Shown here in pieces: positions 48,125 to 48,470 of a stretch of 64,000 nt of DNA. The stretch is from NCBI RefSeq assembly GCF_009931435.1, contig NZ_CP043414.1; one strand, written 5' to 3'. The position numbers and the translations under genes were made by a program. Source of the stretch: Escherichia coli. GTDB lineage: Bacteria > Pseudomonadota > Gammaproteobacteria > Enterobacterales > Enterobacteriaceae. Under the pieces are notes generated by a model, which saw only the letters and a list, made by a program, of their open reading frames with translations, was not told where the DNA came from and ran no database searches. Position 1 is the first letter of the stretch; every line of letters begins with the position of its first letter.

Positions 48125-48470
48125 TCATCAATGTTTTTACCCGAGAGGGCTGGGGTGAGGCTTTTCCCTCACCCAAACCCTCTCCATGTGGAGAGGAGCC
48201 GCGCCGGATGCGGCGCAAACGCCTTATCCGGCCTACAAGAACGTGCAAATTCAACAAATTGTGCTTTGTTTTTGTAGGCCTGATAAGCGTAGCGCATCAG
48301 GCAATTAGCCCATCTTCTCCATGTGGAGAGGGGCCGCGCCGGATGCGGCGTAAATGCCTTATCCGGCCTACAAGAACGTGCAAATTCAACAAACTGTGCT
48401 TTGTTTTGTAGGCCTGATAAGCGTAGCGCATCAGGCAATTAGCCCCACCGTCTCCATGTGGAGAGGTGGG
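48125..48470. repeat. tandem REP/BIME array in the mtlA-mtlD intergenic region
   Basis: Roughly 134-bp unit (CTCCATGTGGAGAGG...GCCGCGCCGGATGCGGCG...GCCTTATCCGGCCTACAAGAACGTGCAAATTCAACAAA.TGTGCTTTGTTTTTGTAGGCCTGATAAGCGTAGCGCATCAGGCAATTAGCC) present about 2.3 times. Confidence 0.8.

Follow-up and report, generated by a model that had tools for sequence, protein, structure and literature searches.

A rare allele with two BIME-1 units in the mtlA-mtlD spacer of Escherichia coli

A 64,000-nucleotide stretch of an Escherichia coli genome (contig NZ_CP043414.1, assembly GCF_009931435.1; referred to here as the window, with positions counted from its first letter) carries a tandem repeat between mtlA and mtlD, two genes of the mtlA-mtlD-mtlR operon. 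This repeat poses three questions, namely to which class of elements it belongs, how its units came to be duplicated, and whether their number matters to the operon. Our answer to the first is that the element is of a known kind, here in a rare allele with two units, a repeat of the BIME-1 type (bacterial interspersed mosaic element, a composite of repetitive extragenic palindromes, or REPs), and that it represents a length polymorphism between strains. We consider likely, on the whole, the fuller account in which this anatomy is combined with a homology-driven origin, as judged from sequence comparison, and with a REP-like function, as judged from other loci.

The mtlA-mtlD spacer is 363 bp long (48114-48476) and is transcribed, from the minus strand, within mtlA-mtlD-mtlR. 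In this spacer, Tandem Repeats Finder delineated an array at 48177-48466 with a period of 135, 2.1 copies, 93% matches, 1% indels and a score of 515, the sole non-coding tandem repeat with a score of 100 or more in the window. A repeat search placed the in-register copies 134-135 bp apart, and located a 23-nt element three times at 135-bp spacing. The original prediction had proposed a composite REP unit of ~134 bp, present ~2.3 times in direct tandem at 48125-48470. The direct repeat and the composite unit between the two genes are borne out, but the values require adjustment: the period is 135 bp, and there are 2.1-2.15 copies, that is, two complete units, after which a 15-nt hairpin core, in its third copy, closes the array. 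Similarly, the proposed interval does include the array, but the array begins only at 48177-48181; the first ~55 bp of the interval are neither REP nor repeat. A separate, non-REP palindrome is found at 48143-48197, and only its outermost arm, namely the third hairpin copy, overlaps the array.

Each unit consists of a hairpin core, a spacer, a Z1-type REP, a linker, a Y-type REP inverted with respect to the Z1 REP, and a further spacer. In unit 1, which is proximal to mtlA (135 nt, 48331-48465; minus strand, like the other parts of the array), the Z1 REP, GCCTGATGCGCTACGCTTATCAGGCCTAC, occupies 48408-48436, the AT-rich, 36-nt linker of the L (long) type 48372-48407, and the Y REP, GTAGGCCGGATAAGGCATTTACGCCGCATCCGGC, 48338-48371. 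Unit 2 (135 nt, 48196-48330) has its parts in the same order, with the Z1 REP at 48274-48302, a long linker of 37 nt at 48237-48273, and the inverted Y REP at 48203-48236. Aligned with each other, the units show 8 differences in 136 columns. The 15-mer CTCTCCACATGGAGA is identical in all three hairpin copies: copy 1 lies inside a head hairpin (48451-48465), copy 2 at the junction of units 1 and 2, as read from a table of junctions (48316-48330), and copy 3 at 48181-48195, where it is also the first hairpin of the conserved palindrome. Along the mRNA, the mtlA stop codon is followed by 6 unpaired nucleotides, the head hairpin, unit 1, hairpin-core copy 2, unit 2, and hairpin-core copy 3, which is the first arm of the five-block palindrome, and then by the 29-nt mtlD leader. 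The stable head hairpin, CCCACCTCTCC-ACAT-GGAGACGGTGGG (48444-48470), was mapped by sequence, by its minimum free-energy (MFE) fold and by regular expression. Hairpin and spacer together, ~32 of the 135 nt of a unit, are specific to the mtl locus. The flanking genes were identified with NCBIfam equivalog/subfamily models, with scores far above the cut-offs; all are on the minus strand, with mtlA at 48477-50390, mtlD at 46965-48113 and mtlR at 46378-46965.

Four REP palindromes are found in the spacer, two with the sequence GCCTGATGCGCTACGCTTATCAGGCCTAC and two of the form GTAGGCCGGATAAGGC-N5-CGCCGCATCCGGC, in agreement with the definition of REPs, or palindromic units (PUs), as imperfect palindromes of ~30-35 nt with a conserved GTAG/CTAC foot. 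They are extragenic, and they are dispersed, in that REP-containing queries match a median of 14-17 places per E. coli genome. The type names Y, Z1 and Z2 are our own attributions, made from the sequences by way of published descriptions and of the Y, Z1 and Z2 consensus sequences. In each unit, one Z1 REP is followed by one inverted Y REP; between them lies an AT-rich linker of 36-37 nt, towards which the CTAC/GTAG feet are turned. This is the composition of BIME-1 (RIB/RIP), which is described as one Y and one Z1 REP, in inverted orientation, with a long L linker in between, and as single-copy (PMC3333891). As is the case at BIME-1 loci, the whole element is missing from some strains.

A BLAST search of unit 1 against the window revealed two further Z1-linker-Y modules, one at 26348-26449 (plus strand), between tdh and a glycosyltransferase gene, and another at 39542-39629 (minus strand), between lldP and the gene for a trimeric autotransporter adhesin. 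The linker of the former is similar in length to those of the mtl units, and only loosely similar in sequence; that of the latter is much shorter. No variation is seen in the Z1 and Y REPs when the mtl units, K-12 and these two modules are compared. Both modules match positions 26-128 of the unit only, with no flanking hairpin, and therefore the dispersed family member is the REP pair of ~103 nt, i.e., BIME-1.

The mtl array departs from BIME-1 in two respects. First, the module is found in two tandem copies in the window, and in three in some other strains, rather than as a single copy. Second, the tandem unit includes the ~32 nt of locus-specific, non-REP hairpin and spacer. In addition, the L linker of BIME-1 is described as conserved and as carrying an IHF-binding site; the linkers of the array match the IHF consensus WATCAANNNNTTR only with mismatches, two in unit 1 and one in unit 2 (ATTCAACAAATTG, plus strand), and so hold candidate, IHF-like sites. 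In its tandem amplification, and in the strain-to-strain variation of its copy number at a fixed intergenic locus, the array resembles BIME-2 instead. Unlike BIME-2, though, the array in the window lacks both a Z2 REP (GCCTGATGCGACGCTG..CGCGTCTTATCAGGCCTAC) and the short S linker; it repeats every 135 bp, as against ~100 bp, and the unit boundaries fall in a non-REP hairpin. Under the published scheme, a locus with the order Z1-L-Y-Z1-L-Y would be an 'atypical BIME' made of BIME-1 modules. A REP cluster between two co-transcribed genes is also found in REP325/naRNA4, in the yjdM-yjdN spacer, and in the malE-malF stabiliser, for which the best-supported model of action is the same as that proposed for mtl, namely stabilisation of the upstream mRNA and partial Rho termination. 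REP325, however, comprises six pairs of Z2 and Y REPs, i.e., it is of the BIME-2 type, and against the naRNA4 model, with its gathering score of 59.5, the mtl array reaches no more than 38 bits.

Polymorphism of BIMEs between strains has been known for decades. To place the two-unit array among the alleles of this site, we took a 963-bp query, in which the spacer is extended by 300 bp into either flanking gene, and searched 5,426 complete E. coli genomes with it, of which 5,425 matched; the best identity across this segment was 98.9%. The span of the match in the target was 694, 828/829, 963/964, 918/919, 1019 or 1120 bp, and representatives of each class were fetched. O157:H7 has no unit and only the palindrome, in a spacer of 94 bp; one unit is found in spacers of 228-229 bp, as in K-12 (229 bp), two in spacers of 363-364 bp, as in the window, and three in spacers of 498 bp, as in Z0117EC0005, E200086 and R32_14_1F. 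Spacer length is therefore 94 + n x 135 bp, with n ranging from 0 to 3, which confirms the proposal that unit copy number varies between strains. In a separate series, from the B2 lineage, the spacers measure 319, 419 and 520 bp (EC958, Z0117EC0036 and A13, respectively), and contain a Z1/Y pair followed by one, two or three ~100-bp units of Y and Z2 REPs; this array is a classical BIME-2 copy-number series. The class frequencies derive from coverage counts and are approximate, but they agree with an evenly spaced sample of 59 rows: at most 931 genomes (~17%) have no unit, ~3,367 (~62%) are of the BIME-1 type, and ~1,127 (~21%) are of the Y/Z2 type.

Arrays of more than one BIME-1 unit are rare. 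A 151-nt junction query gave a single intact match, that is, an intact unit-to-unit junction, in 18 of the 5,426 genomes (0.33%). Eight of these are two-unit alleles, with single-piece matches; of the other ten, we checked three, all of which have three units. The remaining seven probably have three as well, judging from the junction identity they have in common with the checked strains. These genomes also bear on the concern that the duplication is an artefact of assembly or sequencing, tandem repeats being a classic source of assembly errors. The 8 differences between the units are not what a collapsed or expanded identical repeat would give; moreover, an independent complete genome, that of 2020CK-00188, has both units identical to those of the window. 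Two units occur in seven more genomes, three units occur in at least three, and the junction is intact in 17 genomes besides 2020CK-00188. The chance that the duplication is artefactual is, in our estimation, negligible.

How, then, did the unit come to be duplicated? The flanks of the 15-mer are informative in this regard. On its left, the copy at the junction is flanked by the sequence that stands left of the tail copy (CGGCGCGGC[C/T]C), and on its right by the one that stands right of the head copy (..GATGGGCTAATT); in the 'empty' allele of O157 the combination is reversed, with the head flank on the left and the tail flank on the right. These combinations indicate that the endpoints of the duplication and of the deletion both lie inside the 15-nt direct repeat, a hallmark of short direct repeats that have undergone unequal recombination or slippage. 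We thus envisage an ancestral single BIME-1 flanked by two copies of the 15-nt repeat (DR). Unequal recombination or replication slippage between these copies would have duplicated the 135-bp segment, converting DR-X-DR into DR-X-DR-X-DR. Later unequal crossing-over between whole units would produce three-unit arrays, and also collapse back to one unit, whereas recombination between the outermost repeats would leave the 94-bp 'empty' allele of O157:H7, with the DR only.

Comparison of the units across strains is consistent with this scheme. Unit 1 of the window is identical to that of 2020CK-00188. Unit 2 has an 'internal unit' signature, consisting of GGAGAAGATGGGCT (a 1-nt deletion) and AAAAACAAAGCACAATT, which is common to the internal units of all the multi-unit strains examined. 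The internal units of every multi-unit strain cluster by their position in the array, not by strain, and apart from the first units. This pattern suggests one old duplication, followed by spread and further expansion. In addition, strain 2013C-4282 has one 135-bp unit whose 5' part is exactly that of unit 1 of the window and whose 3' part is exactly that of unit 2; this chimera looks like a two-unit allele of the window type that has collapsed through unequal crossing-over. At this site, the head hairpin and a Z1/Y pair also occur in Escherichia albertii and in Escherichia sp. MOD1-EC7003, and therefore REPs were present there before E. coli arose. The 94-bp allele is, then, most likely a secondary deletion.

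The array might alternatively have been built by TnpA(REP)/RAYT, through cleavage and strand transfer at REP or linker sites, as has been suggested for the amplification of BIME-2. In vitro, BIMEs are cleaved and recombined by TnpA(REP), which is also a proposed agent of tandem BIME assembly (PMC3333891), and strains of the B2 lineage do carry classical Y/Z2 arrays, with 1-3 units of ~100 bp, at this very site. In the BIME-1 array, however, the duplicated segment is not bounded by REPs; its endpoints are in the non-REP 15-mer, and ~32 nt of it are locus-specific. The O157 deletion allele and the 2013C-4282 chimera are the expected products of homology-driven exchange, and BIME-1 is described as not amplified by the transposase route (PMC3333891). 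We therefore regard assembly by TnpA(REP) as improbable. With an origin in homology-driven exchange, the mtl locus would imply that a position between short direct repeats permits the amplification of BIME-1 modules, even though these are described as single-copy.

To gain insight into the possible consequences of the array for the mtl mRNA, we examined the predicted fold of the spacer. Its folding energy is -171.8 kcal/mol, which corresponds to z = -8.4 relative to shuffled sequences. The predicted MFE is -54.7, -126.7, -182.6 and -249.8 kcal/mol for 0, 1, 2 and 3 units, respectively, so each unit adds ~60-67 kcal/mol of predicted structure. The mtlD leader (48114-48142, minus strand), with its ribosome-binding site GGGTAAAAACATTGATGAAGGTTAATACT, is conserved in sequence across genera; the Shine-Dalgarno sequence GAAGG (48122-48126, minus strand) has a predicted unpaired probability of 0.62-0.68 whatever the number of units. 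Because this accessibility is constant, a direct effect of unit number on the initiation of mtlD translation is not expected. A promoter scan detected no sigma-70-like promoter at 47900-48700, and so lends no support to an internal mtlD promoter; a terminator scan of the same interval detected no intrinsic (Rho-independent) terminator on either strand.

An effect on expression would instead be exerted through the stem-loops themselves. On the mRNA, the array would fold into a block of very stable stem-loops, which would shield the upstream mtlA segment from 3'-to-5' exonucleases and would also attenuate, partially and in a Rho-dependent manner, the read-through into mtlD and mtlR. Protection and attenuation together would raise the ratio of mtlA to mtlD-mtlR, and a second unit would probably strengthen this effect only modestly. 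The original prediction had suggested that unit number can affect mRNA stability and differential expression within the operon, which is plausible by analogy with published work on intercistronic REPs: in co-directional gene pairs with a REP in between, the ratio of upstream to downstream expression is higher than in controls, with a median log2 value of 0.96 vs -0.09 (bioRxiv 10.64898/2026.03.23.713779).

Several considerations weigh against this account. That the array should raise mtlA relative to mtlD and mtlR is an extrapolation from other loci, the dependence on copy number included, and the effects of REPs are context-dependent and vary widely (bioRxiv 10.64898/2026.03.23.713779). A literature search for the mtlA-mtlD spacer found no paper on it, the one E. 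coli match being concerned with a Dam site of the mtl region that is unmethylated. The low frequency of multi-unit alleles (0.33%) is explained by neutrality, or by mild counter-selection, no less well than by an adaptive role. As to origin, the 8 differences between the units are as compatible with an unequal crossover between divergent single-unit alleles as with an old duplication; and since BIME-1 is described as single-copy, the array is atypical, which leaves the TnpA(REP) mechanism a slim chance.

The second unit could thus be a selectively neutral length polymorphism, with no measurable effect on mtl beyond that of one unit or of the hairpins alone, in an array that is merely tolerated by a spacer that accepts many kinds of insert. 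The multi-unit alleles are not only very rare (18/5,426) but also scattered, and ~17% of the genomes do without any unit while ~21% have the quite different Y/Z2 array. Very different spacers appear to be tolerated, in that the mtl genes are annotated as ordinary coding sequences in every class representative fetched; and other genera hold unrelated repeats at this site, either ERIC-like elements or single genus-specific REPs. The constancy of the predicted accessibility of the mtlD ribosome-binding site and the wide, context-dependent spread of published REP effects point in the same direction (bioRxiv 10.64898/2026.03.23.713779). Conversely, the intercistronic REPs that have been tested do shift the upstream/downstream ratio, and the effect of REP325, with 12 hairpins, is large (bioRxiv 10.64898/2026.03.23.713779). 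The predicted mRNA structure contributed by each unit is also substantial, at ~60-67 kcal/mol, and some stem-loop element is present at the site in most Enterobacteriaceae whose spacer exceeds ~100 bp. On balance we consider neutrality a serious contender, somewhat short of an even chance.

Quite apart from unit number, the first paired base of the head hairpin lies 6 nt past the mtlA stop codon in every allele class. REPs within ~15 nt of a stop codon reportedly stall terminating ribosomes, a finding said to be that of Liang, Rudd and Deutscher in 2015. The hairpin might therefore hinder the termination of mtlA translation and lower MtlA output, whatever the number of units.

As the original prediction had noted, the repeat also produces long, spurious open reading frames (ORFs) on both strands. 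These are a 131-aa mechanical ORF on the plus strand (48016-48411), an 89-aa one on the minus strand (48169-48438), and an mtlD frame extended to a TTG start (46965-48257, minus strand). When the three overlapping ORFs were considered as coding sequences, the Pfam matches were at the level of noise (Herpes_LP, E = 0.01; Dicty_spore_N, E = 0.1). An RNA gene was also considered and set aside, a permissive Rfam search of 47500-49000 having returned only sub-threshold matches to naRNA4 and ES036, located on the REPs.

The naRNA4 matches, and the overlap of the 131-aa and 89-aa ORFs with the array, are what could be cited for the view that the region is a discrete small RNA, naRNA4-like or REP-derived, or that it encodes small proteins. 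The two naRNA4 (RF02564) matches, on the minus strand, score 38.1 and 32.5 bits; the better of them is well below the gathering score of 59.5, and both sit on the Y REPs, and thus reflect common REP sequence. The interval 47900-48700, as described above, yielded neither a sigma-70-like promoter nor an intrinsic terminator for such an RNA, and the ORFs have no credible Pfam match. Furthermore, the ORFs are disrupted or absent in the 0- and 1-unit alleles, owing to differences in the spacer of multiples of 135 bp, with indels in addition. We thus deem a small RNA or small proteins highly improbable. The array, on the other hand, accounts for both the spurious ORFs and the over-long mtlD frame in the annotation of the spacer.

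The non-REP palindrome between the array and the mtlD leader has features of its own. It consists of five blocks (48143-48197, minus strand; CCTCTCC-ACAT-GGAGAGGG-TTT-GGGTGAGG-GAAAAG-CCTCACCC-CAG-CCCTCTC) and is similar to BoxC/TMECO. To survey its distribution, we searched species-representative genomes with a degenerate pattern for the MtlD N-terminus, which yielded 120 loci, and extracted the spacer from 115 of these. The synteny of mtlA and mtlD is maintained throughout the sampled Gammaproteobacteria, with a spacer that is usually 55-145 bp long. A strict regular expression recognised the palindrome in 38 of the 115 spacers, and a further 6 have a visibly degenerate version. In the 38 strict matches, the palindrome ends 28-31 nt before the mtlD ATG, compared with ~30 nt in the window. 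The genera in question are Escherichia, Citrobacter, Enterobacter, Klebsiella, Kosakonia, Phytobacter, Pluralibacter, Lelliottia, Cedecea, Buttiauxella, Atlantibacter, Superficieibacter, Pseudescherichia, Pseudocitrobacter and Mangrovibacter. Among the 115 spacers, the palindrome was not found in those from the sampled Erwiniaceae, Yersiniaceae, Pectobacteriaceae, Hafnia, Vibrionaceae and Pasteurellaceae.

Two of the surveyed entries deserve mention in their own right. A contig labelled Chryseobacterium sp. 18061 (locus L133 in our survey) has the typical mtlA-palindrome-mtlD arrangement of Enterobacteriaceae, with an MtlA C-terminus 89% identical to that of E. coli, and is probably a case of contamination or mislabelling. 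In Serratia sp. DD3, an identical mtlD start and 65-nt spacer are found on four contigs (L121-L124).

In an alignment of genus representatives, the arms of the palindrome have a mean pairwise identity of 91-93%, which may be compared with 91% for mtlD codon positions 1+2, 52% for mtlD third codon positions, and 25% for the palindrome's own loop. RNAalifold favours one long imperfect hairpin. The arms being near-invariant, a double change is seen at only 1 of 16 pairs, and covariation is uninformative about RNA structure. The few substitutions in the 3' arm (CCTCACCC to CTTCACCC or TTTCACCC) still allow G-U pairs in the sense RNA, which hints, though weakly, at constraint on the RNA.

The order of blocks in the palindrome, CCCTCTCC - GGAGAGGG - N3 - GGGTGAGG(G), is like that of the BoxC/PIT/TMECO intrastrand-triplex motif (PMC4666352). 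By eye, the orthologous element of Enterobacter, Lelliottia, Pseudocitrobacter and others fits the strict TMECO consensus, CCCTCNCCC-N3-6-GGGNGAGGG-N3-GGGNGAGGG. No exact match to this consensus was found in the window, where the best candidate (48166-48197, minus strand) requires 3 mismatches and a 2-nt loop; a relaxed pattern gave a single match in the window, which is the mtl element. Unlike TMECO, the mtl palindrome has two extra blocks, CCTCACCC and CCCTCTC, which complete the long hairpin. The K-12 mtl copy is not among the 23 published TMECO sites, and TMECO loci are reported to be hot spots of intergenic variability (PMC4666352). As at those loci, the intergenic sequence beside the mtl palindrome varies greatly between strains. 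Unlike the unstable TMECO sites, however, the mtl palindrome itself keeps its position across genera: although BoxC/TMECO motifs are reported as instability hot spots, the mtl copy has stayed at its site throughout the Enterobacteriaceae.

The variable part of the spacer is the stretch from the mtlA stop codon to the palindrome, which is filled by BIME-1, by BIME-2, by single genus-specific REPs or by an ERIC-like element. This site therefore seems to be a recurrent landing pad for stem-loop repeats. An insert of ~125 bp containing GTGAATCCCCAGGAGC..ACATAAGT..GTGACTGGGGTGAGCG precedes the palindrome or the mtlD leader in Citrobacter (L016, L066, L095), in loci L049 and L089, in Yersinia aldovae (L019) and in Hafnia (L092). 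From its sequence, we take this insert to be an ERIC/IRU element.

In a more speculative reading, the palindrome is a functional cis-element of the mtl mRNA or DNA that acts as a two-state switch, with GGAGAGGG pairing either with the upstream CCCUCUCC or with the downstream CCCUCUC, and with the copy number of the hairpin as a modulator. We give this reading little credence. If it were true, the switch could govern processing or stability, or how much read-through reaches mtlD and mtlR, and each extra unit would add a competing CUCUCC/GGAGA hairpin beside it, such that copy number would tune MtlA:MtlD:MtlR. Strong attenuation would then be harmful, since MtlD removes mannitol-1-phosphate, which would explain the rarity of multi-unit alleles.

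As found, the two-unit array matters little in itself, being one more case of the long-known length polymorphism of REPs and BIMEs. The alleles of this site, with 0-3 units of BIME-1 and 1-3 units of another BIME type between the same genes of an inducible operon, constitute a natural test set. Such a set is well suited to measuring how REP number relates to mRNA stabilisation and to Rho-dependent attenuation, which the recent REP literature treats as context-dependent.

Elsewhere in the window, the adhesin gene next to the lldP module encodes an EhaG/YadA-type trimeric autotransporter of 1,517 aa (39658-44211, minus strand). It contains a coding tandem repeat at 42302-42834, with a period of 255 bp, 2.1 copies and 93% matches. 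This gene is variable, which is why a 20-kb query reached ~92% identity, at 89% coverage, in the best complete E. coli genome.

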